Shown in pieces: positions 2,899 through 16,987 of a stretch of DNA of 64,000 nt (the stretch's first letter is position 1; each line of letters opens with the position of its first letter). The position numbers and the translations under genes are program-made. The notes under the pieces are model-generated. The model searched no databases, was not told where the DNA came from, and was given only the letters and a program-made list of their open reading frames with translations. Origin of the DNA: Candidatus Parcubacteria bacterium (GTDB taxonomy: Bacteria; Patescibacteriota; Patescibacteriia; UBA1558; GWA2-36-10); NCBI GenBank assembly GCA_018669975.1, contig JABHSK010000002.1, forward strand, positions 73,293-137,292. Direction: 5' to 3'.

Positions 2899-3291
2899 TT
2901 AAAAATTTCTATAGGCATCATCTATCTCATCGTCTGACCAGCCACCTTGAGATCTTAGTGTATCTTTAATGCTACTATCTATCATTCCGGCTTCTCTCGC
3001 TTTATTAATATAATCATGCAAAGCTTTTTGATTATTATCAACATCAACAAATTTAATCCCATATTCTTGCTTCACATATCTATCCCATAGCTTAAAAAAC
3101 AAATGGCCCAAGACATAAGCTGTCGGCACATAAACAACCAAACTAATACCAGCTGTACATATAATAGAGGCTGCCAAGAAAGCAAGACCACCTGATGGTG
3201 ACATGATTAGAAAAAATAAAACAATTATCATTGCTCCCGCTCCTAATTCTTTGGGCTTGTTTCTTTTTCTTGATTTTTGAATCTGTGGCAT
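2899..3291 (-). CDS. small membrane protein with conserved C-terminal GGWSD-EI domain (paralog 1)
   Basis: TM helices followed by a ~40-aa tail HDYINKAREAGMIDSSIKDTLRSQGGWSDDEIDDAYRNF. Paralogous to the adjacent gene. Confidence 0.5.
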   Translation of the reverse strand: MPQIQKSRKRNKPKELGAGAMIIVLFFLIMSPSGGLAFLAASIICTAGISLVVYVPTAYVLGHLFFKLWDRYVKQEYGIKFVDVDNNQKALHDYINKAREAGMIDSSIKDTLRSQGGWSDDEIDDAYRNF

Positions 3292-3297
3292 AGTAAA

Positions 3298-3675
3298 TTA
3301 TTTTAATACATCAAAAGCTTTAGCGATTTCGTTATCTGACCAACCACCTTGGTTTTTTAAATTTACTCCAATTTCTTGATCAGTTAAATTGTTATGTTTT
3401 GCAGATCTTATGTAATCTACCAAGGCTTCTGTATTTTTATCAAGCTTCATTTTACCTTTTCGGCCCGTTCTAATTATTTTTCTTATCAACTTATAAGCAC
3501 CTACTAGTATTATAATTCCCAACGGTCCAAATACTAAAACAATACCTCCATCAAGACCACCGCAAACTATAGCAAAAAATAATAAAAACGCACCCATACC
3601 TAACACAGCTAGAATGCATAATATAGCAATTATTTTTAAAAGTATGCTAAGCGTTGTTTTTGATGCTGCTGTCAT
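3298..3675 (-). CDS. small membrane protein with conserved C-terminal GGWSD-EI domain (paralog 2)
   Basis: Tail VDYIRSAKHNNLTDQEIGVNLKNQGGWSDNEIAKAFDVL aligns with the neighbour. The 5' end overlaps the upstream ORF by 29 nt, so the true start may be an internal Met. Confidence 0.5.
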   Translation of the reverse strand: MTAASKTTLSILLKIIAILCILAVLGMGAFLLFFAIVCGGLDGGIVLVFGPLGIIILVGAYKLIRKIIRTGRKGKMKLDKNTEALVDYIRSAKHNNLTDQEIGVNLKNQGGWSDNEIAKAFDVLK

Positions 3676-4702
3676 TTTTACGACGATTCTCTAATATATA
3701 TATCCAATATTTGCTAGAAGCAATAATTAAGGCTAAATAAAATGGTACAGCAAAAATAACTTCTATCGGCACAGAAGTAAAGGGAAGAGTATAGCCAGAA
3801 AAATTAGCCACTGTACTAGGACCATACACTCGATATTGACTGGCTATCAACCAAGCTTCTATCGGTGTAGTGATTATACCTGCTACCAATAAATAGGCTA
3901 TAAACTTTTCTATTAGGTTAAAATGCACTAAAAATTTATCCACGAAACCAATTGCCAACCATATGATTATAATCCAAATACCAGACATCAAAATGCTAAC
4001 GTCTCTATAAAAATATGACCATGCAGGCAAATTAGCATTGAGAACCATAGGTTCAATCATAATTTCAAAAAATATTACTGCTAGCAAAACAATCAACAAT
4101 TCCCTACCCCACTTAATCTTTTTCATTGGGATAAGCAATTTCTTGTCGATTACTAGACTCCAATATTTATAAAATCCAATAACTAAAGTCATAAATACTG
4201 GGATATAGTAAAAAGAACTCCATGGAATATTAAACCACGGCACAAAATGATCTTTGATAACCTCTAAAGACTCCGGCGCGTAAGCTCTAATCCCTAAACC
4301 CACCACTGCTTTTTCTGCCCATAAAGCTATAATAAATACGAACAATAAATAAAGCAGAAACTTATGCCATTCTTTAAAATGGACTAAATATTTATCTATC
4401 AAAACTACTGGCACTAAAATAATTGTTGACCAACCAATGGTTAGCACCCAAGATACATCACGATAGACATAGGCCAATTCTCCCAATCTAAAATTATGCC
4501 ACATCGGTGCTGTAAAGAATTCAAAAATAAAAACGCCTAATGCAATAATGGCGAATCTTAAAAAAATCTTGTCTGTAATTTTTGATAAAAAGAATAAAGA
4601 TGCTGCAGCCATGACAAAGATAAATACCTCAAAATAAATTATCGGCATAGTGGCAACCTTGTCAAAGTGACAAGCAGCTGAGCTACAAGGTTGAAAAATC
4701 AT
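3647..4702 (-). CDS. polytopic membrane protein with internal tandem duplication
   Basis: Two homologous halves (YRDVSWVLTIGWSTIILVPVVLIDKYLVHF and YRDVSILMSGIWIIIIWLAIGFVDKFLVHF). At least 8 predicted TM helices. Confidence 0.5.
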   Translation of the reverse strand: MIFQPCSSAACHFDKVATMPIIYFEVFIFVMAAASLFFLSKITDKIFLRFAIIALGVFIFEFFTAPMWHNFRLGELAYVYRDVSWVLTIGWSTIILVPVVLIDKYLVHFKEWHKFLLYLLFVFIIALWAEKAVVGLGIRAYAPESLEVIKDHFVPWFNIPWSSFYYIPVFMTLVIGFYKYWSLVIDKKLLIPMKKIKWGRELLIVLLAVIFFEIMIEPMVLNANLPAWSYFYRDVSILMSGIWIIIIWLAIGFVDKFLVHFNLIEKFIAYLLVAGIITTPIEAWLIASQYRVYGPSTVANFSGYTLPFTSVPIEVIFAVPFYLALIIASSKYWIYILENRRKNDSSIKNNA

Positions 4703-4752: not shown

Positions 4753-5916
4753 TTAGTGTTCACAAGAACAACCTGAACAACCACTCTGTTTTTTATCTGA
4801 AGCATTTAAAAATTCTGAATCCTTCATTTTACAACCCTGCCAGGTAGCCTGGGAAAAATGTGGATGCGTAGACAATTCATCCCAAATTTTATATAGCGGT
4901 TTCTGTAAAATATTTCCAAAACCAGCATGGTTAAAATCACAAGGAGAAATATCACCATATGGTGATGCATAAAAATAACTAGTACCCCCTGAACAACCAG
5001 TGCTACGATAGCTGGTAGCATAGGCATAGATTAAAACTCCCGGATAACTTTTATCTTTATTATATTTTTTACTAAATGTTATCATCTCCTCTATCCAGGC
5101 TCGATTATCTATCAAATCATCACGACTTTTGGCGCGACCGACTGGTACCATGTCAAAAACAAGCACTTCATGCACGCCCAGCTCCTGGCCCAACTCAATT
5201 ATTGCTTTAAGTCGACCGCTACGGAAATCATCTTCACTAATAGTGCACGATAAACCAACCGTTAAGCCAGCTTTTTTAGCTGCTTGTATACCAGCTAGTG
5301 CTTTATCAAAGAGCCCATCCTTGCGTCGCCTTTTATCATGTTCCTCACGATTAGCTGAATCCATAGAGATATAAACTCCATCTAAGCCAGACTGCTTCAA
5401 CTGCTCAGCTTTTTCTTCCAAAAACCATCCGTTAGTAAATAAAATAGCAATTGATAAATCTTTATCAATGCTAGAAACTATTTCTGGTAAATCATCCCTA
5501 AGCAAAGGCTCGCCACCAACTATATTGATAACTGACACACCTAATTCTTGAGCATCCTCTATTAGCTTCTTACTTTGATCTAGGGTCAAAATTTGCCTAC
5601 TCCTATCATCTGCTGATTCAAAGAAACTACAGTGCTCACAATTAACATTACAAGTGTCATTAACTGCAAAGCTCATTAAATTGGGGAAATTACGATTTTG
5701 AATAGTAGAAAAAACTGACCTAGAAAATAAATTAACAGCTGGTTTACTATAAACTGCTGGCGTAGAAAGAGAATACACTGGGTAACCATCACGCCAATGA
5801 ACAACCTTATTATGATTGAGGTAAATTTTATAAACTCGCTCAAAAAAATCTATTGAATATTGAATTGATCTAGTAGAAATAAACCATTTGAATCTAAACT
5901 TGGAAAAAATACTCAT
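4753..5916 (-). CDS. radical SAM enzyme with C-terminal SPASM/twitch-like Cys-rich domain
   Basis: CNVNCEHC (CxxxCxxC) radical-SAM cluster motif, a NIVGGEPLL glycine-rich motif, and a C-terminal C-x12-G-x4-C segment (CSGGTSYFYASPYGDISPC) followed by a CSGCSCEH Cys cluster. Confidence 0.8.
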   Translation of the reverse strand: MSIFSKFRFKWFISTRSIQYSIDFFERVYKIYLNHNKVVHWRDGYPVYSLSTPAVYSKPAVNLFSRSVFSTIQNRNFPNLMSFAVNDTCNVNCEHCSFFESADDRSRQILTLDQSKKLIEDAQELGVSVINIVGGEPLLRDDLPEIVSSIDKDLSIAILFTNGWFLEEKAEQLKQSGLDGVYISMDSANREEHDKRRRKDGLFDKALAGIQAAKKAGLTVGLSCTISEDDFRSGRLKAIIELGQELGVHEVLVFDMVPVGRAKSRDDLIDNRAWIEEMITFSKKYNKDKSYPGVLIYAYATSYRSTGCSGGTSYFYASPYGDISPCDFNHAGFGNILQKPLYKIWDELSTHPHFSQATWQGCKMKDSEFLNASDKKQSGCSGCSCEH

Positions 5917-5935: not shown

Positions 5936-6484
5936 ATGTTAATTAAAGAAATAATATTTTTTATTACACCGCTATTATTAGCTGGTCTAATCCATCACTT
6001 ATTTGTTATTAAATTTGATCTGGTCAAACAACTTGCAAGACCTATTGATAATAACCTATTTTTAGGTGGGCAGCAATTATTCGGTCAGTCAAAGACTTGG
6101 CGTGGCATTATTGTTATGACTGCCTTATCCGGTCTTTTTTACTACTACTTGTCATACTGGATTAATATTGAGACAAATTACCCAGCCCTTATATCTGGGA
6201 TGCTCATAGGCCTCGGCTATGCTCTGGGTGAATTGCCAAACAGCTTTATAAAACGCCGTCTCCATATAGGTGCTAGTCAATCAAATTATAAGGGTTTTAA
6301 AAAAATATTTTATCTTATCGATCAGGTTGATTCTGTAGTCGGTGCTTTAATATTATTATATGTTGTCTACCAGCCATCAATAAACCTGGTGCTATCAATA
6401 TTAATAATTAGTTCTTTACTGCATTTATTAATAGACAGTTATCTGCATAAATTCAGCTACAAAAAATCAAACAATATACAATAA
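5936..6484 (+). CDS. small integral membrane CTP-transferase-superfamily protein (CarS/CdsA-like)
   Basis: About 180 aa with 5 TM helices and a GQSKTWRG motif resembling the KTW(E/R)G motif of CdsA/CarS-type cytidylyltransferases. Only plus-strand gene in this cluster. Weak assignment. Confidence 0.4.
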   Translation: MLIKEIIFFITPLLLAGLIHHLFVIKFDLVKQLARPIDNNLFLGGQQLFGQSKTWRGIIVMTALSGLFYYYLSYWINIETNYPALISGMLIGLGYALGELPNSFIKRRLHIGASQSNYKGFKKIFYLIDQVDSVVGALILLYVVYQPSINLVLSILIISSLLHLLIDSYLHKFSYKKSNNIQ

Positions 6485-7117
6485 ATAATAAATAGCCGCG
6501 CCAGCAGACACTGGTACCACCAAATTATCCAAACCTTTACCAAATAAACCTTCTAAGAAGCTAACCAATAAAGCAGCTATTATTGCGAAAACGAAATCTA
6601 ATGCAGATAATTGACCCTTAACAAACCAGACTACTCCCAATAATACCAACAATGTCACTATAAAAAACAAAACACTGCCCAGCCATGTTTTTTCTCCAGT
6701 GAGATTGTATTTTTTTTGTCCAAATTTATAACCAATCACGCCAGCCAAACCATCGGCTAACGCTAAAATCAAAACCGCGCCCTGAAAAATGATAGCCTTA
6801 ATTGGCACAAAAGTAACAAAAGTAACTGTCAGTCCAAGTGGAAACAAAACCGCGCCCGAACTATGCCCGTTTATTTTATGAACACTGTCTAATAATTTCT
6901 GCCTTTTTATAATTAATAAAAATAAAGCGAAAAAAATACCAATAACCACTGCCATTGGTACTCCAAACCAAACTGGTAACAACAAAGAGACAAAACCACC
7001 GCCAATATGAGCAATCTTTCTAGAATACTCTGTCCGCATACCCCGACGATAAAAAAACTCACCTGTCAAAAATACAGCTACATACAAAATTAAAATTATA
7101 ATTAAATGCCAAATCAT
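6467..7117 (-). CDS. polyprenol (dolichol/phytol) kinase-like CTP-dependent membrane kinase (CdsA/DolK superfamily)
   Basis: YRRGMRTEYSRKIAHIGGG, GEKTWLGS, ALADGLAGVIGYKFG and C-terminal LEGLFGKGLDNLVVPV motifs, as in the DolK/VTE5 family. Polytopic. Confidence 0.55.
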   Translation of the reverse strand: MIWHLIIILILYVAVFLTGEFFYRRGMRTEYSRKIAHIGGGFVSLLLPVWFGVPMAVVIGIFFALFLLIIKRQKLLDSVHKINGHSSGAVLFPLGLTVTFVTFVPIKAIIFQGAVLILALADGLAGVIGYKFGQKKYNLTGEKTWLGSVLFFIVTLLVLLGVVWFVKGQLSALDFVFAIIAALLVSFLEGLFGKGLDNLVVPVSAGAAIYYLLYIV

Positions 7118-8130
7118 ATTTGTTTTTGATAAGCCCGATAATACCTATAAATATCTGCACCCTTAGTCAAATTCAAGATGCCTTGATTATCTTCACGCAT
7201 AGTAGAAAATATAAATTCCTTAACGTTCTGCTTTTTAGCTTGCTGATATACCCAATAAAACATAGCTTTGCCAATAGCCTGCCCCTGAAATTTACTGCCG
7301 ACTGCAAAGGTTTTAATTATAACTCTATCTGAATCACTTACATCTGCAACAGCAAAACAAAAAGCAGCAGCACATTTTTTCTTATCTAACACCAAACAAC
7401 TAAAAGGCAGGGTTGATGTTCTATCTAAATCTTTATAATAATGGGCAAACTCTTCTAAGCTAATTTTAGCAAATGACCAGGAATCTACAAATACCTCGCT
7501 AATCATCTGAAATATAGCTTGCAAACTAGCCTGATAATTTTTCTCATTAATGTGCTCAAAAACAAATCCATTGGCCACTACCTCCGAAAAATCTTGAGCA
7601 AAATTAGTAAAACCGCAATCTTTCAATGAAGATATAGTAGAAACATTTTGCTGAGCTATTTCAAAATTTGCGTTTTCAAATAAATCTTTATAATAGGCCC
7701 TACAAAATGGCTCTAGAGAAAAAGGCTGTCTGTCTTCAGGAAATGACACTCGCCAATTTTGCCAAGTAGTTAAATTAATCGGCCCACGTAAAATTTTTCT
7801 ACCCAGTTGTCGTGCGTGCTCCGATATAGCGTCAAAAATTTTATCTGCGTAGACTTGATTATTTTTAGACTCAAAACAACCTAGTAAGGCCAATTCTGCT
7901 GGCAAACGAGAGTCTGTAATAACCGCTGCGTGAGCCACTGGCTTGCCCTGATCCAACAACAAAAAATTATCTACAGAACCAAAATTAAAAAAGGGATTAC
8001 TAATATTATTAATCTTTCTAGCCTCCTCTACCTTTGTCCTTGCGACATCTGGATAGTCCCGATAAATATCTACAATCAGATCACTATAATCGCTAAGCAA
8101 GCCGTCAATTTTGTAATTAATGACTTCCAT
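7114..8130 (-). CDS. GNAT-family N-acetyltransferase domain protein (C-terminal) with unknown N-terminal domain
   Basis: C-terminal VIIKTFAVGSKFQGQAIGKAMFYWVYQQA (Q/RxxGxG/A acetyl-CoA motif). The N-terminal ~190 aa are unassigned. Confidence 0.5.
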   Translation of the reverse strand: MEVINYKIDGLLSDYSDLIVDIYRDYPDVARTKVEEARKINNISNPFFNFGSVDNFLLLDQGKPVAHAAVITDSRLPAELALLGCFESKNNQVYADKIFDAISEHARQLGRKILRGPINLTTWQNWRVSFPEDRQPFSLEPFCRAYYKDLFENANFEIAQQNVSTISSLKDCGFTNFAQDFSEVVANGFVFEHINEKNYQASLQAIFQMISEVFVDSWSFAKISLEEFAHYYKDLDRTSTLPFSCLVLDKKKCAAAFCFAVADVSDSDRVIIKTFAVGSKFQGQAIGKAMFYWVYQQAKKQNVKEFIFSTMREDNQGILNLTKGADIYRYYRAYQKQI

Positions 8131-8743
8131 AAAAATGTAAATACAACATTACTGCAATTAAAGCTGCCAAAAAGATAACAAAGCCACTAATTTTTTTTGG
8201 TTTTGGGAAAGGGAAAGTAGACAACATTAAAATACTAGTCAACATAATTAAAACATCTGATATATAGACAAAATATTGCACGGCATTAAGCTTAAATATC
8301 AAAAACAACAGAACCAATAAATGACTAAAGACTACTGGCAGACCTGGATAATTAAAACCAGACACATAGCCCAACACATTGAAACGTGCTAAACGAAAAA
8401 CTCCACTGGCTAAAAAAATAAAAATTACTATAATAGACCCGATGTCTTGCAAACCGAAAAATAAATAAAAAGCCAAAGCTGGATAAACTAAGTAAATAAA
8501 AACATCAACTTGCCCGTCTAGTAAACGACCAAAATCTGAGCTTATACCTAATTTTCTAGCTAACCAACCATCTGCAAAATCAACAATAAAAGCTAACAGC
8601 ACCAAGGCAAAAGATAAATAGAATTGACCCTGCAATAGAAAAACTATTGCTAACCAAACTGTTAATAGAGCCAATAAAGTAATGGCGTTTGGTCCATTAA
8701 AAAATTGATTATTTTTTTCATTGTCCATAGATGATTTCTCCAT
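8117..8743 (-). CDS. CDP-alcohol phosphatidyltransferase
   Basis: Exact match to the D-G-x2-A-R-x8-G-x3-D-x3-D signature (DGWLARKLGISSDFGRLLDGQVD). Polytopic membrane protein. Confidence 0.85.
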   Translation of the reverse strand: MEKSSMDNEKNNQFFNGPNAITLLALLTVWLAIVFLLQGQFYLSFALVLLAFIVDFADGWLARKLGISSDFGRLLDGQVDVFIYLVYPALAFYLFFGLQDIGSIIVIFIFLASGVFRLARFNVLGYVSGFNYPGLPVVFSHLLVLLFLIFKLNAVQYFVYISDVLIMLTSILMLSTFPFPKPKKISGFVIFLAALIAVMLYLHFYGSH

Positions 8744-10430
8744 TAGAAAAATTTAAGCTAATATTAGTATCATTTTTGATCATTTTGGTGGCCTTGTCCA
8801 CTCCTACCAAACAAGGAATTTGTAATTCTCTAGCAACAATGGCCGCGTGAGACAACATCCCACCTCTTTCCACCACAATTCCCTTAACCAGGGGGAAAAC
8901 TATTGACCAACCAGGATCAGTCTGCCTAGTGACTAAAATTTTATTCACATAGTCAGCCTTAGGATCAAAGTCGGTCAGCACCAAAGCAGTGCCGCTAACT
9001 ATATCTTGATCTATTCTAGAGGCGACTGATCCGGATAGTGATGTTTTGTCAACTGAATGACTGATTTTATGTAAAAATTCTTTTTCTTTTTCACAAATAG
9101 CTTTTCTAGTTTCTATTCTACGTGGTAAATCAATTTCTCGCCAGGCATCCCCTGCTATTTGTCGCTGATTTATTAATTTTTCAACCTGTTCTCTGTTCAT
9201 TTTTTTATCAATCAAAGAAAATATCTCTCCAATTTTTAAATAAAATATATCTCGCTGTGATTTTAATAAGTTCTGCTGAGACAATCTATCCCCCATCTCT
9301 AAAAACACCCTCCTGGCAAAACCAAAAATTAAAGTGCGCTTAAATCTAGTCTCTTCCCGACGACGAATTGAATTAACAGACCACTTAACAATAAATTTCA
9401 ACAATGCTTTTTTAAACACTGAGCAATTTTTATAATCTAAAGTTTGAATATTGCCAGCAGATCCCACATGATTACTATTATTCCTATCACTAACCACTAT
9501 CTTTTGTAAGAAACTAACAAATACCTGTGGAGATTCTTGCAATGTAATTGCCTCCAATTTTAATTCATTAGGTGATCGACTACCAAACTTTTTTAAATAC
9601 TGAAAAATTATCTGACTAACTTTATTGTCTTGAAATTGACTATTCAATTTATCCCAAACAAAATTTTCATCACTATTTTTAAACAACTCACGTAGATCAC
9701 TATCTGCTTTTATTTTTTGACTAATCTTAATGACCTCTAAGCCTGGATCCAACGAAATTAATGAACTGTGTGATTGCATCCTTAGATGATTATAAACGTT
9801 ATCTTCTTGAAGCCATTTTTTAAAAAGCTTATCAGCTATCCCTGTACTAATCATGACTGCTAAATCATTAGCGATTGGGACCTTCCACCTAGTTGTTAAA
9901 TCTTTAACCAAAGATAAATAAATCCTCCTGAGCCGTTTTAAATCAAAAGATTTTAAGTCTAACTTATCTGATTGCTCAAATATCTGATCAAACTTTTTGT
10001 TAAAATTATTAACTAAGACTCCCATGAAAATAAAGGTAAAAATCATTTTAACAAACTGCCAAATCATAACCGACAAATCGATAAAATACCTTTGCCAAAA
10101 ACCATACCGCTGACCATTATCATGGTCATGCTCCTTTTGCACACCAAGCATTTTTTCCAAAAAACGACGATTAAATTTATAGCCTGGCAAAAAAGAGATT
10201 AATCTATACCAATTAATCAAATCATAATACATACGATGCCCAATAAAAACTACCATCTGCCTAAACATATCATCGTTAGCCTTTATGGTACCTTGGCTAA
10301 CACCCATCATCTGACAAAAACTTTTATAAACCTCTTGATAGACATATCGAGCAAAAGAAAAAGTTAGTGGAGTTGTAATTCCTGAATAACTCTCTGCCAA
10401 ATTAGAATTGTCATAAATATTTTTAGACAT
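8718..10430 (-). CDS. PEP-synthase / rifampin-phosphotransferase-like dikinase, substrate-binding plus phosphohistidine swivel domains (no ATP-grasp, no PEP TIM barrel)
   Basis: C-terminal PEP-utilizing-enzyme mobile domain GIVVERGGMLSHAAIVARELQIPCLVGV (catalytic His). N-terminal ESYSGITTPLTFSF. The ~430-aa central region is unassigned. Confidence 0.75.
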   Translation of the reverse strand: MSKNIYDNSNLAESYSGITTPLTFSFARYVYQEVYKSFCQMMGVSQGTIKANDDMFRQMVVFIGHRMYYDLINWYRLISFLPGYKFNRRFLEKMLGVQKEHDHDNGQRYGFWQRYFIDLSVMIWQFVKMIFTFIFMGVLVNNFNKKFDQIFEQSDKLDLKSFDLKRLRRIYLSLVKDLTTRWKVPIANDLAVMISTGIADKLFKKWLQEDNVYNHLRMQSHSSLISLDPGLEVIKISQKIKADSDLRELFKNSDENFVWDKLNSQFQDNKVSQIIFQYLKKFGSRSPNELKLEAITLQESPQVFVSFLQKIVVSDRNNSNHVGSAGNIQTLDYKNCSVFKKALLKFIVKWSVNSIRRREETRFKRTLIFGFARRVFLEMGDRLSQQNLLKSQRDIFYLKIGEIFSLIDKKMNREQVEKLINQRQIAGDAWREIDLPRRIETRKAICEKEKEFLHKISHSVDKTSLSGSVASRIDQDIVSGTALVLTDFDPKADYVNKILVTRQTDPGWSIVFPLVKGIVVERGGMLSHAAIVARELQIPCLVGVDKATKMIKNDTNISLNFSNGEIIYGQ

Positions 10431-10435
10431 CCGTT

Positions 10436-11323
10436 CTAGATAAACAAACTAATGATAAAAACTATATCTGCTACCATCGCAAATAAAATTGACGTATTAA
10501 ATACTTGTTTAGCCCCTTTATTGCTAGGATGTTTGATAAATTTATAAACAAACAACATCAAGACTATACAAATACAAAAATTTATATAAAATAAACTTGT
10601 TGAAAAAAATAAATCTATCTTAATATATGACCAAAGCACTGCAAATGATAAAGCAGTCACTAAAATTGACGCACCCTTGATACCATATTGAGCAGTATAT
10701 GTATCTCTAGAGGCAATTTCCATATCTTTTGGTCTAAATTTTCTAGTCACCTCCAGTAAAAACAACTGGCTACCCAAAAATACAAATAAATACCAAAAAA
10801 ATGGGCTGTTTATTTCTGGCCAAGTAGCCCCACTCAGTGCAAAGATATAAAAAAATAAGGGTAATAATAAAATTTCATGAGAGGCAATGTACACCGTGAA
10901 GTGCTTCTTAAGCCATTTAGCAACAAAGAATTCCTTAAACATCAACAAAGAATAAAACATTGCTACTACAAACATTAATAAAGAAAATAACCCCGCAGAC
11001 AAAGAAATTAAAACTTCTAAAATTAAAATTAGCCAAACAATCTTTTTTAATTCTACCAATTTAATCAACCCCCTAACTACTGGCCTATCTGGATAATGCT
11101 CTTTATCATGATCATAATCTTTAAACTCATCAAATAACCTTAGACGAAATAAAAAAAGCCATAGGGCTAGGCTAGGCCAAACGAATGCCCATAAATTTTC
11201 CGTGCCTAAATAAAATTGAATACCCCAGGCAGCTACCAAAGAAAAAATTAAAGACAAAGGTATGAATTGCTGCAATGGAAAACGCTCTTTTAAATACTGG
11301 GCAAAGTTTTTGTAAGTCAACAT
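10436..11323 (-). CDS. UbiA-family aromatic/isoprenoid prenyltransferase
   Basis: Asp-rich motif FDEFKDYDHDKEHYPDRPVVRG (NDxxDxxxD...RPL-like). About 8 TM helices. Confidence 0.7.
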   Translation of the reverse strand: MLTYKNFAQYLKERFPLQQFIPLSLIFSLVAAWGIQFYLGTENLWAFVWPSLALWLFLFRLRLFDEFKDYDHDKEHYPDRPVVRGLIKLVELKKIVWLILILEVLISLSAGLFSLLMFVVAMFYSLLMFKEFFVAKWLKKHFTVYIASHEILLLPLFFYIFALSGATWPEINSPFFWYLFVFLGSQLFLLEVTRKFRPKDMEIASRDTYTAQYGIKGASILVTALSFAVLWSYIKIDLFFSTSLFYINFCICIVLMLFVYKFIKHPSNKGAKQVFNTSILFAMVADIVFIISLFI

Positions 11324-11329
11324 ACAAAA

Positions 11330-12091
11330 TTATAAGGTAGTTATTGGTCTGGCTTGTAAAATAAATGTTTTATCATCCTTGATGCACCATTCAATATCAC
11401 AGGGATATCCAAAATGTTTTTCTATCTTCAAACAATCATCTGATAATTGCCTTAACTGTTCATCTGTTATATTGATTTTAGATTTGGTCTGCACATCAAT
11501 CACTTTACTGGTTTTTTTATCAACTACATAACAATTCGGCGTCACCTCACCGTTAACAAGTTTATCGCCAGAGCCAGCACAAGCCTCTATTATCATTTCG
11601 TTTTTTTGTTTGGAGATAGGATTAACTGTAAAACATACTCCTGCCATATCTGCATCTATCATCTCCTGCACCACTACAGCCATGTGAATATTTTTAATTT
11701 TTATTCCCTGCTGTTTTGCATAGGCCTTCACTTTTTCAGAAGATACTGCTCGCCAACAATCCTCTACTGCAGCTAATACCTTAGACTTCTTAACATCGAG
11801 GTAACTCTCAAAAATTCCCGCCCAAGATGCTTGAGCTGAATCCTCAACCAAAGCTGAAGACCTTACTGCCGCCTTCTTCAATTTTAAAGCATCAAATCTT
11901 TCTAGAATCTCCTCACTCGTCTTTGAATCAATCTGCTTTGATCTTTTATAACGATTAAAGCTCGGTGTCAATATTACAAAACCAGGCGGAACTAAAAAAT
12001 CAGCTGATATCATGTCACCTAAAGATGCTGCTTTGCCGCCAGCTCTATTTTTATCCTTTCTATTTATTTGATATAAGTTTTTTGTATTCAT
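11330..12091 (-). CDS. stand-alone PPDK_N/ATP-grasp nucleotide-binding domain of a PEP-synthase-like dikinase
   Basis: GGKAASLGDM, VPPGFVIL, AVRSSALVEDSAQASWAGIFESY, MAVVVQEM, GVCFTVNP, IEWCIKDDKTFILQARPIT. This is a complete ATP-grasp domain that ends at the ORF stop. Confidence 0.8.
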   Translation of the reverse strand: MNTKNLYQINRKDKNRAGGKAASLGDMISADFLVPPGFVILTPSFNRYKRSKQIDSKTSEEILERFDALKLKKAAVRSSALVEDSAQASWAGIFESYLDVKKSKVLAAVEDCWRAVSSEKVKAYAKQQGIKIKNIHMAVVVQEMIDADMAGVCFTVNPISKQKNEMIIEACAGSGDKLVNGEVTPNCYVVDKKTSKVIDVQTKSKINITDEQLRQLSDDCLKIEKHFGYPCDIEWCIKDDKTFILQARPITTL

Positions 12092-12162
12092 TACTATAAT
12101 TATAACATTCTTATAAACAAAAAACTATCAACCATATCTTGACAAAATGCTTATTTTATAGT

Positions 12163-12191
12163 ATACTGCAATGTTTTCGACCATTCAAAAT
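12163..12191 (+). promoter_or_regulatory. near-consensus sigma-70 promoter (TTGACA-17nt-TATACT)
   Basis: ttgacaaaatgcttattttatagtatact immediately upstream of the zinc-ribbon gene. Confidence 0.5.
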
Positions 12192-12222
12192 CAATCACAA
12201 AACCTTAAAAAGGGAGAAGATC

Positions 12223-12591
12223 ATGGAATGCAAAAATTGTGGCCATAGCCACGACCCCTCAACCGCTAAGTTTTGTAGTGAATGTGCTACCGAATACACC
12301 CCGGAAGACAAGCTGCCTTGGATTGGCGACTGCAAAGACCGCGGGGTATTCCGCATTACCTTTGCTGCAGTTGAAGGCGAATTCGATCATGATGATGCGG
12401 CTACTGATGCTGCCAGACATTCCAATTGGAATGAAGATGATGAATTTCCCAATTTTACCCTGAAAAAGATTAGCAGTACCGTCACTGCCGCTACACACCC
12501 CTATATCTGCGGTGGCTGCGGTGACTACGTCTCCGAACACACCGATGGCAAATGCCAAGGTTGCGATGCCCAAGACTGGCAACTTCGCTAG
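12223..12591 (+). CDS. small Cys-rich zinc-ribbon protein
   Basis: MECKNCGH...CSEC ... CGGCGDY...CQGCD. Start chosen at the Met behind an AGGGAGA Shine-Dalgarno. The ORF track extends to 12139 but that stretch overlaps the promoter. Visibly GC-richer than the flanks. Confidence 0.5.
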   Translation: MECKNCGHSHDPSTAKFCSECATEYTPEDKLPWIGDCKDRGVFRITFAAVEGEFDHDDAATDAARHSNWNEDDEFPNFTLKKISSTVTAATHPYICGGCGDYVSEHTDGKCQGCDAQDWQLR

Positions 12592-12683: not shown

Positions 12684-13319
12684 TTATATTTTACCAACTA
12701 AATCTAATCCTGGTTTAAGCGTATCTTCACCTGGCTCCCAATTAGCTGGGCAAACCTGATCACCATATTTATGAACAAATTGAGCGGCCTGTAGCTTACG
12801 AAGTAACTCTTTGCTACTACGGCCAATGCCATTGTCATGTACTTCCATAGTCTTAAGATGTCCTTCTGGATCGATAATAAAAGTACCACGCAAAGCAATA
12901 CCTTCTTCCTCAATCAAAACTCCATACTTATTGCTAATCTCATGAGTAGGATCAGCTACCATAGGAAATTTAATTTTCTTAATAGTTTCACTATCATCAT
13001 GCCAAGCTTTGTGCACAAAAGCTGTATCAGTAGAAACTGACAAAACTTCAGCATTTAATTTTTTGAGTTCTTCATAGCGATCAGCCATGTCACCCAACTC
13101 AGTTGGACAAACAAAGGTGAAGTCTGCTGGGTAAAAAAATAGTATCACCCACTTACCTTTATAATCTTCCAATTTTATCTTCTTAACTTGATCCTCATAA
13201 TAGGCCTCAGCTTCAAACTCTGGTGCTAATTGCCCTATCTCTGGCGTGCAGTTTAAAAACATATCGTCATCACAACAAGAGTCTCCACCACAACACATAT
13301 TATCTTTTTTTTCTTCCAT
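12684..13319 (-). CDS. typical 2-Cys peroxiredoxin (AhpC/TSA family) with possible N-terminal Cys-rich extension
   Basis: FFYPADFTFVCPTE peroxidatic-Cys motif and C-terminal GDQVCPANW resolving-Cys motif. The first 20 residues (MEEKKDNMCCGGDSCCDDD) may be an artefact if the true start is the internal Met (MFLNCT...). Confidence 0.85.
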   Translation of the reverse strand: MEEKKDNMCCGGDSCCDDDMFLNCTPEIGQLAPEFEAEAYYEDQVKKIKLEDYKGKWVILFFYPADFTFVCPTELGDMADRYEELKKLNAEVLSVSTDTAFVHKAWHDDSETIKKIKFPMVADPTHEISNKYGVLIEEEGIALRGTFIIDPEGHLKTMEVHDNGIGRSSKELLRKLQAAQFVHKYGDQVCPANWEPGEDTLKPGLDLVGKI

Positions 13320-13350
13320 AATTTTATGTATTATTTTTTATTAAAATTAA

Positions 13351-13965
13351 TTATTTTGCTGCTTGATAAAATTCAGCTACTCTTGACCAATTGATCACCT
13401 GCCAAAAATTATCTACAAATTCAGCTCGTTTATTCTGATATTTTAAATAATAGGAATGTTCCCAAACATCGATGCCTAAAATAGGCTTTTGTCCCAATGA
13501 ATATGGACTATCTTGATTACCAGTCTTACTGATTTGCAATTTACCATCAGCTACCACTAGCCAGGCCCAGCCTGAACCAAAAACTGTCATAGCAGCTTGA
13601 GTAAACTCTTCCTTGAATTTATCCCAATTGCCAAACGTTTTTTCAATATCAGCCAGTAAATCCCCTTCTGGTTTTACATTTTTATTATCTGGTCCCATAA
13701 TCTGCCAAAAAAATCCATGATGGACATGTCCACCGCCATGGTTTCTAACAGCTAGCCTAATTTCCTCTGGCACACTGTCCAAATCTGCTAAAATTTCTTC
13801 GGCTGATTTCTTGTATAAATCTGGATACGCTTCCAGGGCTTTATTAAAGTTAGTTGTATAAGCAACATGATGCTTATCATGATGAATTATCATTGTCTCT
13901 TCATCAATATATGGCTCCAATGCATTATAATCATAAGGCAATGAAGGTGTTTCAAATTTTTTCAT
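13351..13965 (-). CDS. Fe/Mn superoxide dismutase
   Basis: HHDKHH and DVWEHSYY motifs. Length 204 aa. Confidence 0.9.
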   Translation of the reverse strand: MKKFETPSLPYDYNALEPYIDEETMIIHHDKHHVAYTTNFNKALEAYPDLYKKSAEEILADLDSVPEEIRLAVRNHGGGHVHHGFFWQIMGPDNKNVKPEGDLLADIEKTFGNWDKFKEEFTQAAMTVFGSGWAWLVVADGKLQISKTGNQDSPYSLGQKPILGIDVWEHSYYLKYQNKRAEFVDNFWQVINWSRVAEFYQAAK

Positions 13966-13976
13966 GAATTTATTGA

Positions 13977-14561
13977 TTAATATTCTTCAGATTTAACCTG
14001 ATAATAGGCTTGCGGATGATCACAAGACGGACATTCATCTGGCGGAGTCTCACCAACATGAATATAGCCACACTCGCGACACACCCAAACTGTTTGTTTT
14101 CCCTTTTTAAATAATGTTTTCTTTTTTAATTGCTCCAATAATTTTTTATAACGCTCTTCATGGTGTTCCTCAGCAATAGCTATTGATTCGAATCTCTTGG
14201 CAATGTCATCCAAGTCTTCCTCCTTGGCTACCTTAGCAAATCCTGGATACATGTCTGTATATTCATAATTTTCACCATCAATAGCAGACTGTAAGTTCTC
14301 TTCTGTGTTACCGTAAATAGTCCCCGCCTTGGCCTCAACATACATCTCTGAAAAATCCTCGCCTAATTTTTCCTTGAGCTCTTGAATGTGCTCAAACAAT
14401 CGTTTAGCATGAACCTTTTCTTGCTCAGCTGTTTCTGCAAAAACAGCAGCAATCTGCTCATATCCTTCCTTTTTAGCAACCTTTGAATAATAGGCATACT
14501 TATTTCTAGCCTGTGACTCACCAATAAAAGCCTTTACTAAATTGTCTAATGTTTTTTTCAT
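13977..14561 (-). CDS. rubrerythrin
   Basis: N-terminal ferritin-like di-iron helices (E...H pairs) and a C-terminal rubredoxin-like CRECGYIH...CPSCDHP. Confidence 0.85.
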
Positions 14562-14567
14562 AATAAT

Positions 14568-15587
14568 TTATTTTACCTTATTTATATGTTTATTCTTTAT
14601 AAAAGCTTTAATATTGTCAATTGTAGTATCAAGAATCCTCTGCAGTGCTTCATCAGAATTAAAAGCATTATGAGGCGTCACCAGCACACGAGGATCTTGG
14701 ATCAACAGATGACCCTGCAAAATGGTTTTCAAATCACAGCTTTTTTGAAAAGGTTTAGTTAGAAGCTCTTTTTCTTCTTTAATAAAACATTCCTCCTCTA
14801 AAACATCTAGACCTGCACAGGAAATAATTTTTTTATCTAACGCGGTAATTAAAGCTTGAGTTTCAACTAGGCCGCCACGTGCTGTATTAATTAAACAGGC
14901 TCCTTTTTTAATCAATTTAATATTACCTTTATTTATTAGGTGGTGAGTCTTTTTATTATATGGTGCATGTAGACTAATAACATCGGAGTTAGCTAGAAGT
15001 TTTTCCAAACTTACATACTTAATACCCAACTGCTTAGCTAACTTAGCATCTTTTCGAGTATCGGCTACAATTACTTTCATTTCAAACCCTTTGGCCATTC
15101 TGGCTACATGTTGACCGATGTGCCCCAAACCAACAATGCCTAAAGTTTTTCCCTTTAAATCAAAGCCCCGGACATCAGATAAATCAAAATCATAATTTTT
15201 CATCTTCTCTATTGACCTTGGTACATGTCGAGATAAGGACAGCATTAAAGCCATAGTATGCTCAGCTACGGTATTTTCTCCATAAAAAGGTACATTGCTA
15301 ATTGGAATTTTTTTAGATCGACAAGTTTCTAAATCAATATGATCAAAACCAGTAGACATGGTGGTAATAAACTTTAAATTTGATAACTGATCTATAATCT
15401 GTTTATCCACTTGAGAATATATAAATACTGCCAATACATCTGAATTCTTTATCTTCGGCAGCATAGCTTTGGTCAGTGGCTTTGAAAAAAAGTTGAGGGA
15501 TAAATTTTTAATATCACTTAATTTTTCTTCTAGATATTTTTGTTCCCACTTTTCTGTTTCCAAAAAACTTATATTTAACTTTGGCAT
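14568..15587 (-). CDS. D-isomer-specific 2-hydroxyacid dehydrogenase (NAD-binding)
   Basis: GIVGLGHIGQHVARMAKGFEMKV Rossmann motif. Catalytic-domain layout of D-LDH/PGDH/GDH-like enzymes. Confidence 0.8.
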   Translation of the reverse strand: MPKLNISFLETEKWEQKYLEEKLSDIKNLSLNFFSKPLTKAMLPKIKNSDVLAVFIYSQVDKQIIDQLSNLKFITTMSTGFDHIDLETCRSKKIPISNVPFYGENTVAEHTMALMLSLSRHVPRSIEKMKNYDFDLSDVRGFDLKGKTLGIVGLGHIGQHVARMAKGFEMKVIVADTRKDAKLAKQLGIKYVSLEKLLANSDVISLHAPYNKKTHHLINKGNIKLIKKGACLINTARGGLVETQALITALDKKIISCAGLDVLEEECFIKEEKELLTKPFQKSCDLKTILQGHLLIQDPRVLVTPHNAFNSDEALQRILDTTIDNIKAFIKNKHINKVK

Positions 15588-15600
15588 GGTTTTATATTAT

Positions 15601-15972
15601 TTAATATTTATTTTTACACTTGTTACAATCCCCAAAAAAATTAACCTGATAATTATTAATCTTACCTGCTTTAACATTTTTTGGGAAATTTATACTTTTA
15701 TCAAAATTAGGCATATCAAAAACCTGTTTACAATCCTGGCAAATAAAATGTGTATGATGATCTAAATCTGCATCATAGTGACTGACGTCTGAAACAATCT
15801 CTTTAACTAGATTTTCCTGCGAAAAGTTCTTGAGAATTCTATAAACAGTAGCCTTACTAATAGTAGGCAATTTTTTTCTTATTGCTAAATAGACTTGATC
15901 AACAGACGGGTGTGTTTTAACACCTTGCAAATGATCTAAAATCACTTGTTTTTGTATAGTATTTCTTTGCAT
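15601..15972 (-). CDS. Fur-family transcriptional regulator, likely PerR
   Basis: Winged-helix N-terminus, HHTHFICQDCKQVFD and a C-terminal CNKC metal site. Heads an operon of peroxide/superoxide defence genes. Confidence 0.8.
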   Translation of the reverse strand: MQRNTIQKQVILDHLQGVKTHPSVDQVYLAIRKKLPTISKATVYRILKNFSQENLVKEIVSDVSHYDADLDHHTHFICQDCKQVFDMPNFDKSINFPKNVKAGKINNYQVNFFGDCNKCKNKY

Positions 15973-16638: not shown

Positions 16639-16779
16639 AATATCTAATTAATTATTATTTACTATAAGTACATTAAGGTTAACATCTTTAGACTATATGG
16701 CAAACCCTTGACACAATTTTTTATGCATGCTAACGTCAAATGTTTACAATTGAATATCTTTCAATGAAGCAATGAACGA

Positions 16780-16833
16780 CTATCTATATTTGGACGCTTG
16801 GATAGTCGGGAGCTAGTAGCGTAACCGGCATTG
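16780..16833 (+). ncRNA. copy 1 of a tandemly duplicated ~55-nt element (candidate small RNA / cis-regulatory leader)
   Basis: ctatctatatttggacgcttggatagtcgggagctagtagcgtaaccggcattg, followed at 16850-16880 by a terminator-like hairpin (cacca...tggtg plus T-run). Confidence 0.35.
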
Positions 16834-16930
16834 AGTATTTTTATACTCTCACCAAAAACGCCTAGCCAAATGGTGTTTTTTGTAAATAAAAGCCCTTTTT
16901 ACAACACAAAATATTCGATGAGACAAAGAA

Positions 16931-16987
16931 CTATAGTCTATATTTGGACGCTTGGATTATAGGGAGTCAGTAGCGTAACCGGCATTG
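16931..16987 (+). ncRNA. copy 2 of the tandemly duplicated ~55-nt element
   Basis: ctatagtctatatttggacgcttggattatagggagtcagtagcgtaaccggcattg (about 90% identical to copy 1), followed at 17008-17042 by the hairpin acgtctca-gattaa-tgaggcgt plus T-run. Confidence 0.35.

Follow-up and report, generated by a model that had tools for sequence, protein, structure and literature searches.

The 64,000 nucleotides of Candidatus Parcubacteria DNA analyzed here (the window) encode a dikinase of the rifampin phosphotransferase (Rph)/PigC class as two subunits. This dikinase is the dedicated partner of an adjacent UbiA-family prenyltransferase, and together the two constitute the invariant core of a modular cassette of membrane-lipid genes. 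The reading that we favor, to which we give a probability of roughly 0.45 from sequence and gene context, is that the enzyme is a UbiA-dedicated lipid dikinase supplying a phosphorylated substrate. The cluster points to a route to isoprenoid-based lipids for which literature searches found no description.

The dikinase is divided between two genes

Three tightly packed genes on the minus strand encode an ATP-grasp dikinase subunit of 253 amino acids (12091..11330), an intramembrane prenyltransferase of the UbiA family (295 amino acids; 11323..10436) and the large, substrate-binding and phosphohistidine dikinase subunit of 570 amino acids, labeled RphC here (10430..8718). The spacers are 6 and 5 nt, and all three genes lie exactly where the initial annotation had placed them. 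The three genes that follow overlap by 26 nt (between the dikinase and CDP-alcohol transferase genes), 14 nt and 4 nt. The divergent intergenic region at 12092..12225, assigned to neither strand, is likely the operon promoter, with sigma-70-like hexamers at 12188-12160 and 12180-12153 that are consensus matches only. The zinc-ribbon gene beside this region runs in the opposite direction, and the peroxiredoxin gene upstream of the operon has a terminator-like hairpin at its end (12671-12648). A 9.4-kb part of the cluster is 100% identical to a stretch of a 163-kb ENA contig.

The 253-residue protein is a complete PPDK_N ATP-grasp domain, as first annotated (PF01326, E=2.6e-59), with structure matches to PEP synthase and Rph; it terminates in FILQARPITTL. 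Residues K20, R77, E83, D84, Q142, D232, E234, Q246 and R248 are invariant among 17 split and fused homologues. RphC comprises the helical substrate domain of Rph and a C-terminal phosphohistidine swivel domain, and it has no PEP/pyruvate barrel: a Pfam profile search of its 570 residues gave no match to PF02896. The swivel domain (PF00391, E=1.5e-22) spans residues 497-564 (8739..8942, minus strand) and carries GGMLSHAAIVARE at 523-535. Its catalytic His528 (codon 8847-8849, minus strand) and the flanking GG.LSHAAI.ARE motif are invariant in 65 homologues. RphC matches positions 322-885 of the 898 in NCBIfam model NF004881 (E=3.5e-120) and also the PigC/RedH and Rph models (E about 1e-32 to 1e-35), and precomputed Pfam assignments are PF27448 (Rph_4th) and PF00391. 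The sole full-length structural match of its AlphaFold2 model (pLDDT 85.8) was the Listeria rifampin phosphotransferase (5fbu/5fbt/5hv1; E about 1e-19, TMq 0.63-0.66, about 610 aligned columns). The initial annotation had asked whether the central region might be an ordinary PEP-binding domain, and the pair a pseudogene; profile and structure searches instead identify an Rph-type substrate domain within a conserved split family.

The split-form RphC family has more than 450 matches at E<=1e-10, the best 120 of which are all 553-591 amino acids long; the split form is therefore a conserved family, far beyond chance. In other split loci, the ATP-grasp gene is sometimes separated by several genes or lies beyond the locus. 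More distant homologues of 815-890 amino acids, the nearest 38% identical, hold PPDK_N and the large subunit in a single chain, and their fusion point is the split point of the window genes (ATP-grasp residue 253 maps about 5-20 residues ahead of large-subunit residue 2-5). These natural fusions, the conserved catalytic residues in both parts and the structural match to Rph show that the two proteins are subunits of one enzyme, as had been proposed. The initial annotation would have been undermined by fused relatives unlinked to lipid genes; the fused relatives that exist have kept their linkage to UbiA and lipid genes.

UbiA and the dikinase form the core of a lipid cassette

The UbiA protein exceeds the PF01040 cut-off of 34.2 bits with a score of 50.8. 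It has six hydrophobic segments in a simple hydropathy scan, and its nearest solved structure by profile is the M. jannaschii DGGGP synthase 6m31 (E=2.4e-12). The first Asp-rich motif is kept (D65-E66-x-K68-D69-xxx-D73...R80-P81...G85) and the second has diverged (E191..R194-K195..E202..Y209..G214); as this second motif is non-canonical in this UbiA clade, its donor may be unusual.

A survey of 39 genome loci in eight or more phyla found the UbiA gene adjoining the dikinase gene in about 34; in the remaining five it belonged to the same cluster. The taxa were Patescibacteria, Elusimicrobiota, Dehalococcoidia, Melainabacteria, Clostridia, Acidobacteriota, Armatimonadota and Bacteriovoracia, and the pairing likewise occurs in loci L001, L002 and L049-L051. 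The proposed link to UbiA and lipid genes is thus real and deeply conserved across the surveyed loci. The insertion of UbiA between the dikinase halves, highlighted in the initial annotation, is a local order rather than the essential feature: outside the window's own genome it was seen in only one surveyed locus (L021), L054 having the same sequence as the window. The usual arrangement has UbiA ahead of the dikinase.

The pair sits within a cassette that also has a phytol/dolichol-kinase-like protein, a head-group module and an N-acylation module (GNAT, acyl-AMP ligase), often with a radical-SAM enzyme and a lycopene-cyclase-like membrane protein. The head-group module is of two types: a CDP-alcohol transferase with or without CarS, or a BtaA-like DUF3419 protein. 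The latter is encoded after the dikinase or, in three Obscuribacterales loci, forms a fusion with it. Some dikinase homologues are fused to an acyl-AMP ligase plus a carrier domain. The CDP-alcohol phosphatidyltransferase of the window (208 amino acids; 8117..8743, minus strand; PF01066, E=1.2e-18) resembles phosphatidylserine and archaetidylserine synthases (NCBIfam arch_ser_synth E=7e-24, pssA E=2e-21, both under cut-off), and the CDP-archaeol-synthase-like (CarS-like) cytidylyltransferase (182 amino acids; 5936..6484, plus strand; PF01864, E=6e-15) matches NF003114 at E=6.6e-20, under cut-off. The 338-residue acyltransferase (7114..8130, minus strand; PF00583, E=1.2e-7) has a GNAT fold in its C-terminal half; GNAT-family matches were obtained for 11 of 15 cluster homologues, and the gene is found in both cassette types.

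The kinase-like protein, labeled M216 here (6467..7117, minus strand), is an eight-helix membrane protein of the CTP_transf_1 superfamily, and the analysis read 15 contigs that encode the identical 216-residue protein. PF01148 matches 4 of 21 homologues (best E=1.3e-9), with only 14.6 bits for M216 of the window, and JGI names many of them, the identical protein included, ‘phytol kinase’ or ‘dolichol kinase’. The best Foldseek PDB matches of its AlphaFold2 model (pLDDT 95) are to CDP-DAG synthetase (4q2e/4q2g) and are weak (E 0.2). M216-like genes occur in most but not all surveyed loci, in both cassette types; the Bacteriovoracia loci had none within 10 kb, and UbiA and the dikinase are the sole cassette genes detected there. 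In other genomes, an M216-like domain is fused to CarS beside a CDP-alcohol transferase, without UbiA or the dikinase.

The radical SAM/SPASM enzyme (387 amino acids; 4753..5916, minus strand; PF04055 E=6e-25, SPASM E=3e-5) adjoins M351 (label used here; 3647..4702, minus strand) wherever both were detected in surveyed clusters, and three loci have M351 but no such enzyme. M351 is an internally duplicated membrane protein of 351 amino acids with two repeats of an FE..T.PMW.N...Y.Y.D.SW-like motif; it is weakly lycopene-cyclase-like (PF18916 in 2 of 12 homologues, best E=0.0015). The cluster closes with a pair of small membrane proteins of 125 and 130 amino acids, each with a single pass (2899..3675, minus strand). 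They matched no family in a Pfam search, and homologues follow M351 in L001, L006, L012, L019, L021, L023, L037 and L056.

Proposed function of the dikinase

In dikinases, the ATP-grasp domain binds ATP and the swivel histidine takes the beta-phosphate; ATP is converted to AMP, the gamma-phosphate passing to water. Here, ATP would be bound by the 253-residue subunit, the beta-phosphate taken up by His528 of RphC and then ferried by the swivel domain to a substrate held by the helical Rph-type domain. Gene context suggests that this substrate is a lipid or isoprenoid, and we infer that it may be the isoprenoid consumed by UbiA. The DGGGP-synthase-like UbiA, the CarS-like and archaetidylserine-synthase-like genes and the lycopene-cyclase-like partner argue for an isoprenoid lipid. 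As the genomes with M216-CarS fusions imply that a head-group phosphate can be made without the dikinase, the UbiA step is left as its job.

UbiA enzymes require a diphosphate-activated donor. In a more specific and tentative version, M216 would use CTP to form a prenyl monophosphate, and the dikinase would convert it to the prenyl diphosphate used by UbiA. The CarS-like enzyme would then cytidylylate a lipid alcohol or phosphate for coupling to serine by the CDP-alcohol transferase or, in the other cassette type, the BtaA-like enzyme would alkylate the lipid from SAM. The head-group-bearing lipid would be N-acylated by the GNAT protein, and the radical-SAM and cyclase-like pair may modify the chain. 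Against the prenyl-phosphate step, we know of no characterized dikinase of the Rph/PigC class that finishes by phosphorylating a phosphate monoester; in the known cases the phosphate goes to a hydroxyl or enol oxygen or to an amine (rifampin, the PigC substrate, phenol, aniline, pyruvate, glucan). Since cells normally already hold prenyl diphosphates supplied by chain-elongation enzymes, a dedicated activating step would need a reason, such as salvage or an unusual donor. The lack of M216 near the Bacteriovoracia pairs and the non-canonical second UbiA motif also count against the favored reading, and a role closer to the head-group steps would account just as well for the DUF3419 and acyl-AMP ligase/carrier fusions.

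Another reading, possible though on balance doubtful, is that the dikinase O-phosphorylates a lipid alcohol, as Rph does a hydroxyl: either the acceptor of UbiA, such as a glycerol-based or lyso-lipid alcohol that would become a GGGP-like phosphorylated compound, or the UbiA ether product, the resulting phosphatidate analogue passing into the head-group steps. In every characterized relative, the phosphate goes to a hydroxyl, enol or amine group of a hydrophobic molecule. The acceptor of DGGGP synthase, to which this UbiA is nearest, bears a phosphate, the dikinase gene of the window overlaps the CDP-alcohol transferase gene, and the Obscuribacterales fusions would fit the hand-over of a phospholipid intermediate. 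However, a second lipid kinase looks redundant because the cassette already has M216, which elsewhere forms part of a self-sufficient kinase/cytidylyltransferase/CDP-alcohol-transferase module, and the BtaA-like cassettes need no CDP activation yet retain both the dikinase and M216.

It is less probable that phosphoryl transfer activates an oxygen as a leaving group, as in PigC, a second substrate displacing the phosphate; the enzyme would then condense, for example, an acyl or amino-acid part with an isoprenoid part and leave no stable phosphate ester. The PigC/RedH models cover essentially all of RphC (residue 8 to residue 557 or 567) whereas the Rph model begins at residue 192, PigC gives fused homologues a slightly better score than Rph does, and the acyl-AMP ligase and carrier fusions suit a condensation. 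Yet scores of 111-354 bits fall far below the PigC/RedH cut-offs (1300-1350), the cassette lacks pyrrole or aldehyde chemistry, and the invariant UbiA neighbor is left unexplained. A decayed PEP synthase/PPDK, or a rifamycin-resistance Rph lying beside lipid genes by accident, is hardly credible despite the public names of relatives (‘pyruvate, water dikinase’, ‘phosphoenolpyruvate synthase’, ‘rifampicin phosphotransferase’). RphC has no PEP barrel, it scores 116.8 bits against the Rph equivalog cut-off of 999 and is far under those of the PEP synthase models, and synteny with UbiA is kept across phyla; a fragmented pseudogene is ruled out by hundreds of conserved split proteins with intact catalytic residues.

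Comparison with known systems

Rph (Listeria RPH-Lm; PDB 5fbs/5fbt/5fbu/5hv1) shares the ATP-grasp, all-helical substrate and C-terminal swivel His domains, RphC 193-566 aligning to Rph 491-863 and ATP-grasp residues 74-253 to Rph 114-316. Unlike the window dikinase, it is a single chain that confers antibiotic resistance; the two share about 18-19% identity, and no sequence alignment to Rph covers the first ~190 residues of RphC. The prodigiosin ligases PigC/RedH belong to the same family and act on a hydrophobic substrate, but they too are single chains, RphC scores only 111-123 bits against them, and prodiginine genes are absent nearby. PEP synthase/PPDK has ATP-grasp and swivel histidine domains, but also the TIM barrel, and its swivel is central.

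The splitting of a dikinase has precedent in phenylphosphate and phenylphosphoamidate synthases (PpsA/PpsB, PasA/PasB), in which the alpha subunit with the conserved histidine is separate from the beta subunit. One subunit thus bears the histidine and the other is PEP-synthase/dikinase-like, and these enzymes convert ATP to AMP via a histidine-phosphate intermediate (PMC7500099). Only the swivel is detectably similar (NF006153, residues 448-565, 66.9 bits where the cut-off is 578), their substrates are phenol or aniline, and their partner is a UbiD-type carboxylase rather than UbiA; the split in the window is therefore independent of theirs.

The archaeal route from DGGGP synthase through CarS to archaetidylserine synthase has counterparts in UbiA, the CarS-like protein and the CDP-alcohol transferase, but all are under equivalog cut-offs and the host is bacterial. 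GGGP synthase and G1P dehydrogenase are absent from the window cluster, which adds the dikinase, M216, GNAT, radical-SAM and M351 genes. The second cassette type recalls betaine-lipid synthesis by BtaA (SAM:diacylglycerol 3-amino-3-carboxypropyl transferase), which belongs to PF11899. The window lacks a DUF3419 protein and has the CDP-alcohol transferase instead, and in the cassettes DUF3419 is paired with GNAT and acyl-AMP ligase, not with the BtaB methyltransferase.

Phytol salvage in plants and cyanobacteria likewise combines a kinase of the type named for M216 with a UbiA-family enzyme, and a VTE6 homologue was not detected in the window cluster. In plants, VTE5 (phytol kinase) and then VTE6 (phytyl-phosphate kinase) phosphorylate the prenol in succession ahead of a UbiA-type transferase (PMC4737080). 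The preferred dikinase route would mirror this two-phosphorylation logic, with the dikinase standing in for VTE6.

Three adjacent genes in one operon

The three genes lie on the minus strand at exactly the coordinates reported in the initial annotation. They encode an ATP-grasp subunit of 253 aa (12091..11330; Pfam PPDK_N, PF01326, E = 2.6e-59), a UbiA prenyltransferase of 295 aa (11323..10436; Pfam UbiA, PF01040, 50.8 bits against a cut-off of 34.2) and a large subunit of 570 aa (10430..8718), of which residues 497-564 match the Pfam PEP-utilizers mobile domain (PF00391, E = 1.5e-22). The three are separated by 6 and 5 nt, and there are overlaps of 26, 14 and 4 nt for the three genes that come next. 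The upstream peroxiredoxin gene is closed by a terminator-like hairpin and a zinc-ribbon gene runs in the opposite direction; the start of the operon was therefore placed, as most likely, in the intergenic region 12092-12225. A 9.4 kb part of the window is 100% identical to part of a 163-kb ENA contig, and one protein of the cluster, the 216-aa phytol/dolichol-kinase-like membrane protein M216, is encoded in identical form on fifteen contigs that were read.

Directly upstream of the operon is an oxidative-stress block (12684-15972, minus strand) comprising a peroxiredoxin, an Fe/Mn superoxide dismutase, a rubrerythrin, a 2-hydroxyacid dehydrogenase and a Fur-family regulator. Directly after the cluster (1453-2803, minus strand) are genes for a 194-aa sigma factor of ECF type and for a membrane protein of 253 aa that may be an anti-sigma factor, an arrangement also found on L055 and on L054 (the latter having the same sequence as the window's own genome). 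Elsewhere, two tandem c-di-GMP-II riboswitch aptamers (16756-16839 and 16910-16993, plus strand; 73.1 and 71.9 bits, gathering score 53.5) precede a 240-aa ORF with no Pfam family (17140-17862), which is an unexpected arrangement in a Parcubacteria (CPR) genome; the two riboswitches mark the window as bacterial. The window also encodes a protein with a pilin-type N-terminal methylation motif (19275-20456, plus strand), a 1430-aa protein with bacterial TSP3 and Ig-like repeats (44146-48438, minus strand) and a two-subunit 2-oxoacid:ferredoxin oxidoreductase (49343-51942, minus strand). Several large ORFs (644, 645 and 367 aa) matched no Pfam family, and among 20 other window ORFs scanned no isoprenoid or lipid-synthesis family was found, save for a weak ubiE/COQ5 match on a generic methyltransferase.

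A two-subunit dikinase of the rifampin phosphotransferase/PigC class

The 253-aa protein has the PF01326 ATP-grasp domain of PEP synthase and PPDK, with K20, R77, E234, Q246 and R248 conserved, and its C-terminus (...ILQARPITTL) bears out the earlier reading of a PPDK_N domain that ends at ILQARPIT. Among 17 split and fused homologues K20, R77, E83/D84, Q142, D232/E234 and Q246/R248 are invariant. The large subunit contains GGMLSHAAIVARE, which includes His528, within the swivel domain (PF00391) that it shares with PEP synthase and PPDK; neither His528 nor its motif varies across 65 sequences. The presence of a swivel domain and the lack of a PEP barrel, both claimed initially for the large subunit, were each recovered: a Pfam search gave no match to the PEP/pyruvate TIM barrel (PF02896) in either the 253-aa or the 570-aa ORF. 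Scores against the PEP synthase and PPDK equivalog models of NCBIfam were far under their cut-offs, and the structures of both enzymes match the large subunit in its swivel part only.

The large subunit aligns end to end with NCBIfam NF004881 (positions 322-885 of 898, E = 3.5e-120). Models of the prodigiosin ligases PigC and RedH also align over its whole length, although more weakly than NF004881, and those of rifampin phosphotransferase (Rph) align from residue 192 onwards. In a search of solved structures, residues 193-566 matched residues 491-863 of the Listeria enzyme (Rph-Lm). An AlphaFold2 model built from a 65-sequence alignment (pLDDT 85.8) had Rph-Lm as its sole full-length structural match in Foldseek (E ~1e-19, TMq 0.63-0.66, ~610 aligned columns), and pyruvate kinase, PPDK and Enzyme I matched it over the ~110-residue swivel domain only. 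The precomputed PF27448 (Rph_4th) match, NF004881 and Foldseek thus all identify the helical Rph-type substrate domain of the Rph/PigC class (PRK06241 group). The profile search that had been suggested for the central region consequently places it in this class, with Rph-Lm as the best structure, and the possibility raised at the outset that it is an ordinary PEP-binding domain conflicts with both structure and profiles. The 253-aa and 570-aa ORFs together are shown to form one two-subunit dikinase of the Rph/PigC class, with its catalytic residues intact.

More than 450 database proteins match the large subunit at E<=1e-10, the best 120 all being 553-591 aa long, and at E<=1e-30 the family comprises 1278 clusters (50% identity), spread over many phyla. 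Since homologues keep both the length of the split form and its catalytic residues, and the PEP barrel is absent, a pseudogene or fragmented PEP synthase was rejected. A genuine rifamycin-inactivating Rph was rejected on score (NF041857, 116.8 against 999 bits; NF000283, 73.2 against 1700 bits) and on genomic context, and either explanation, pseudogene or resistance enzyme, is essentially excluded. A genuine PigC or RedH was likewise rejected on context and on score (111-123 bits against 1300-1350 for NF052631 and NF052632). The fused relatives described below score 209-302 bits against the Rph equivalog cut-off of 999 and 250-354 bits against the PigC/RedH cut-offs of 1300-1350. Public databases call members of the clade 'phosphoenolpyruvate synthase', 'rifampicin phosphotransferase' or 'pyruvate, water dikinase'; none of these names finds support here, and the first two are almost certainly wrong for it.

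Split and fused forms

In the window the three dikinase domains are divided between two genes with UbiA between them, and in related fused clades they occupy a single polypeptide. Distant relatives (25-38% identity) hold both parts in one ORF of 815-890 aa, and the fusion junction corresponds to the window's split point, with window residue 253 falling roughly 5-20 residues before large-subunit residue 2-5. The joining of the halves at this point in single-ORF relatives argues that the two belong together. Split forms occur in Patescibacteria, Elusimicrobiota and Dehalococcoidia; fused forms occur in Obscuribacterales/Melainabacteria, Clostridia, Armatimonadota, Vicinamibacterales and Bacteriovoracia, including the cultured Peredibacter sp. 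HCB2-198. The Clostridium enzyme of L034 and the Peredibacter enzyme of L041 are natural examples of the fused form. In a neighbour-joining tree of 40 sequences (the window and 39 loci) the split forms cluster together, which supports a single origin of the split. Repeated fission, or the presence of gene fragments, is possible because an exhaustive homologue library held a few proteins of ~560-580 aa among the fused relatives, at 32-35% identity.

Larger fusions, which link the dikinase to other parts of the cassette, were also found. In three Obscuribacterales loci (L027, 5918-10012; L030, 9047-13003; L035, 9047-12985) the complete dikinase and a BtaA-like DUF3419 domain share one reading frame, giving proteins of 1312-1364 aa. 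At L049 (9001-13293) a protein of ~1430 aa (P0179; about ten others are similar), encoded directly after a UbiA gene, combines a dikinase with an AMP-binding (acyl-AMP ligase) domain and a phosphopantetheine carrier.

The dikinase is genomically partnered with UbiA

Six-frame ORFs of 43 loci, taken from a one-genome-per-species collection, were searched with the cluster proteins of the window. In about 34 of the 39 loci that could be assessed for both genes, the end of UbiA is no more than a few tens of bases from the start of the dikinase gene or overlaps it; in the other five (L010, L011, L015, L022 and L034) the two are 4-7 kb apart within one cluster. This linkage is common to split and fused forms, and additional loci examined in Ignavibacteriales, Blastocatellales and other groups agreed. 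In the Bacteriovoracia loci UbiA and the dikinase are the only cassette genes detected. The dikinase is therefore an obligate genomic partner of a DGGGP-synthase-like UbiA, and this partnership is the central finding of the analysis. The tie to lipid genes asserted in the initial annotation, against which halves both fused and unlinked to such genes would have counted, is accordingly upheld: relatives are fused, and the linkage persists. The placement of UbiA between the halves, treated there as a defining feature, is incidental, since outside the window's genome (including the identical L054) this order recurs in a single surveyed locus, L021, and since the ATP-grasp gene lies four genes downstream in Elusimicrobiota and is not within 10 kb in several loci.

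In Bacteriovoracaceae (L041, 5721-8164; also L038, L039 and L046) the UbiA-dikinase pair is preceded by genes for a conserved DUF2062 protein and for a 650-aa member of the TIGR03545 family; three of these loci (L038, L039 and L041) also have genes for UDP-galactopyranose mutase and epimerase upstream. The start of UbiA is overlapped by a gene of the histone-deacetylase family in two other proteobacterial bins.

The 295-aa protein belongs to the UbiA superfamily by its PF01040 score (gathering score 34.2) and by six hydrophobic segments found in a simple scan. The first Asp-rich motif, (N/D)DxxDxxxD with RPxxxG after it, is kept as D65-E66-F-K68-D69-Y-D-H-D73 ... R80-P81 ... G85; across 23 sequences D65, K68, D69, D73, R80, P81 and G85 do not vary, and E66 is nearly invariant. 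At the place of the second motif (DxxxD type) stands a conserved E191..R194-K195..E202..(D)TY209..G214 pattern, which can be aligned, with an insertion, to KDFEDMEGD in DGGGP synthase. With a 23-member profile, the best solved relative was the M. jannaschii DGGGP synthase (6m31, E = 2.4e-12), followed by chlorophyll synthase (E = 8e-4). The protein does not reach DGGGP-synthase equivalog level: NCBIfam returned generic 'prenyltransferase' models under cut-off only (NF010118, 41.5 against 443).

The surrounding cassette

The dikinase in the window is followed by genes for a CDP-alcohol phosphatidyltransferase (phosphatidylserine/archaetidylserine-synthase-like), a GNAT acyltransferase of 338 aa and M216. 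The cluster further contains a CarS-like (CDP-archaeol synthase-like) cytidylyltransferase gene on the opposite strand, a radical-SAM/SPASM enzyme, the 351-aa membrane protein M351 and two small membrane proteins. Across genomes the cassette is modular and comprises 6-11 genes (11 in the window), with a core of UbiA, the dikinase and M216; M216 and the GNAT protein were each detected in most loci. The dikinase is thus shown to belong to a lipid cassette with enzymes of isoprenoid type, which is also carried by the complete genomes CP064963, NZ_CP174607 and OZ247426, among others. None of the parts reached the curated equivalog thresholds for Rph, PigC/RedH, PEP synthase, DGGGP synthase, CarS or PssA.

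Two alternative head-group modules were seen, never together in the surveyed loci. One consists of a CDP-alcohol transferase with or without CarS (the window, Elusimicrobiota, Paceibacterota, Woykebacteria and Microgenomates); the other has a BtaA-like DUF3419 protein, in most cases accompanied by an acyl-AMP ligase and occasionally by a formyltransferase (Nomurabacteria, Saccharibacteria, Dehalococcoidia, Obscuribacterales, Clostridia, Ignavibacteriales and Acidobacteriota). A putative chain-modifying set (radical-SAM, M351 and small proteins) combines with either. M351 (3647-4702, minus strand) is internally duplicated, carries the strongly conserved motif FE..T.PMW.N ... Y.Y.D.SW twice and has only a weak lycopene-cyclase match. 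It adjoins the radical-SAM/SPASM enzyme (4753-5916, minus strand) wherever both were detected, the two small membrane proteins usually coming after it, and the set could be an uncharacterised isoprenoid-chain-modifying module. The small proteins (125 and 130 aa) gave no usable Pfam or NCBIfam family, with one sub-threshold match to DUF739.

M216 probably belongs to the CTP_transf_1 superfamily: PF01148 is matched by 4 of its 21 homologues (best E 1.3e-9), the window protein itself scoring 14.6 bits against 24. Many of its homologues, including the identical protein, are named phytol kinase or dolichol kinase by JGI, and the top Foldseek match of its model (pLDDT 95) is a weak one to CdsA (E = 0.2). 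From weak profile matches and these source annotations, M216 is putatively assigned as a kinase and M351 as cyclase-like. Long M216 forms in fused-type cassettes (440-456 aa; L025, 12930-14291, and similar) are tandem duplications with a degenerate second copy, and a new function in the C-terminal extension was rejected on that ground.

M216 is also found fused to CarS (397-408 aa) beside genes for a CDP-alcohol transferase, a PlsC-like acyltransferase and a dehydrogenase, with UbiA and the dikinase absent. That neighbourhood shows the putative kinase, the cytidylyltransferase and the CDP-alcohol transferase to be a self-sufficient head-group module. One cluster that lacks UbiA and the dikinase (L052, 8390-12759) encodes a PlsC-like acyltransferase, an M216-like+CarS fusion (397 aa), a 3-beta-HSD/epimerase-family protein, a CDP-alcohol transferase and a 316-aa protein, and may represent another uncharacterised phospholipid route.

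Proposed role of the dikinase

In dikinases of this kind, ATP is bound by the ATP-grasp domain, the swivel histidine accepts the beta-phosphate with release of AMP, the gamma-phosphate passing to water or phosphate; the His domain then hands its phosphate to a substrate in the third domain. UbiA enzymes, for their part, require a diphosphate-activated donor. A role for the dikinase as the phosphate source for CDP activation is weakened by the M216+CarS fusions, which occur with a CDP-alcohol transferase and without dikinase or UbiA. Because the head-group phosphate can probably be put down to M216, CarS and the CDP-alcohol transferase, and UbiA and the dikinase can stand alone, the task of the dikinase would most likely concern the UbiA reaction itself. 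In plants, phytol is phosphorylated twice, by VTE5 and then VTE6, before it is used by UbiA-type transferases (PMC4737080). The cassette has a kinase-like protein that JGI names phytol kinase, and no second kinase of VTE6 type. The donor requirement, the absence of a VTE6-type kinase from the cassette and the plant precedent together favour, tentatively, a route in which M216 would convert a prenol to prenyl-P with CTP, the dikinase would convert prenyl-P to prenyl-PP and UbiA would then transfer the prenyl group. The main rival is that the dikinase O-phosphorylates a hydrophobic alcohol that is the acceptor or the product of UbiA; such phosphorylation is the chemistry of every characterised relative, and this role is possible. 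A PigC-like activating or condensing role is doubtful, and less likely than either prenyl-PP formation or alcohol phosphorylation.

The most far-reaching reading is that the UbiA-dikinase pair may be an unrecognised way to activate an isoprenoid alcohol or monophosphate to a diphosphate donor, with the dikinase in place of VTE6/IPK-type kinases, and that the cassette may build a new class of isoprenoid amino-acid lipid. We assign this reading a probability of roughly one in four. The lipid would have a serine-phosphate or homoserine head group, would be N-acylated and would have its chain tailored by the radical-SAM enzyme and the cyclase-like protein.

Significance and comparison with known systems

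To our knowledge the origin of membrane lipids in CPR/Patescibacteria is an open question, and these bacteria are generally thought unable to make their own. If this far-reaching reading is true, many of them would have a self-encoded lipid pathway, with related versions in Elusimicrobiota, Dehalococcoidia, Melainabacteria, gut Clostridia, Acidobacteriota and predatory Bacteriovoracia. The existence of a cultured carrier (Peredibacter sp. HCB2-198) and of compact versions with six genes, for UbiA, the dikinase, DUF3419, M216, GNAT and an acyl-AMP ligase, makes the hypothesis directly testable. No description of the UbiA-dikinase pairing or of the cassette was found in the full-text literature searched, a body that leaves out most subscription journals. 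The enzyme class and the superfamilies of all the parts are known; the novelty lies in the dedicated partnership with UbiA and in a cassette that may make a new class of lipid.

Split dikinases are themselves already known, as phenylphosphate synthase and phenylphosphoamidate synthase have separate alpha and beta subunits (PMC7500099). The enzyme described here resembles the phenylphosphate-synthase type in having separate ATP-grasp-like and His-carrying subunits (here 253 and 570 aa). It differs in that the similarity in sequence is confined to the swivel domain: the corresponding models (PRK08296) align with the large subunit at residues ~448-566 only, scoring 44-67 bits against cut-offs of 578-730.
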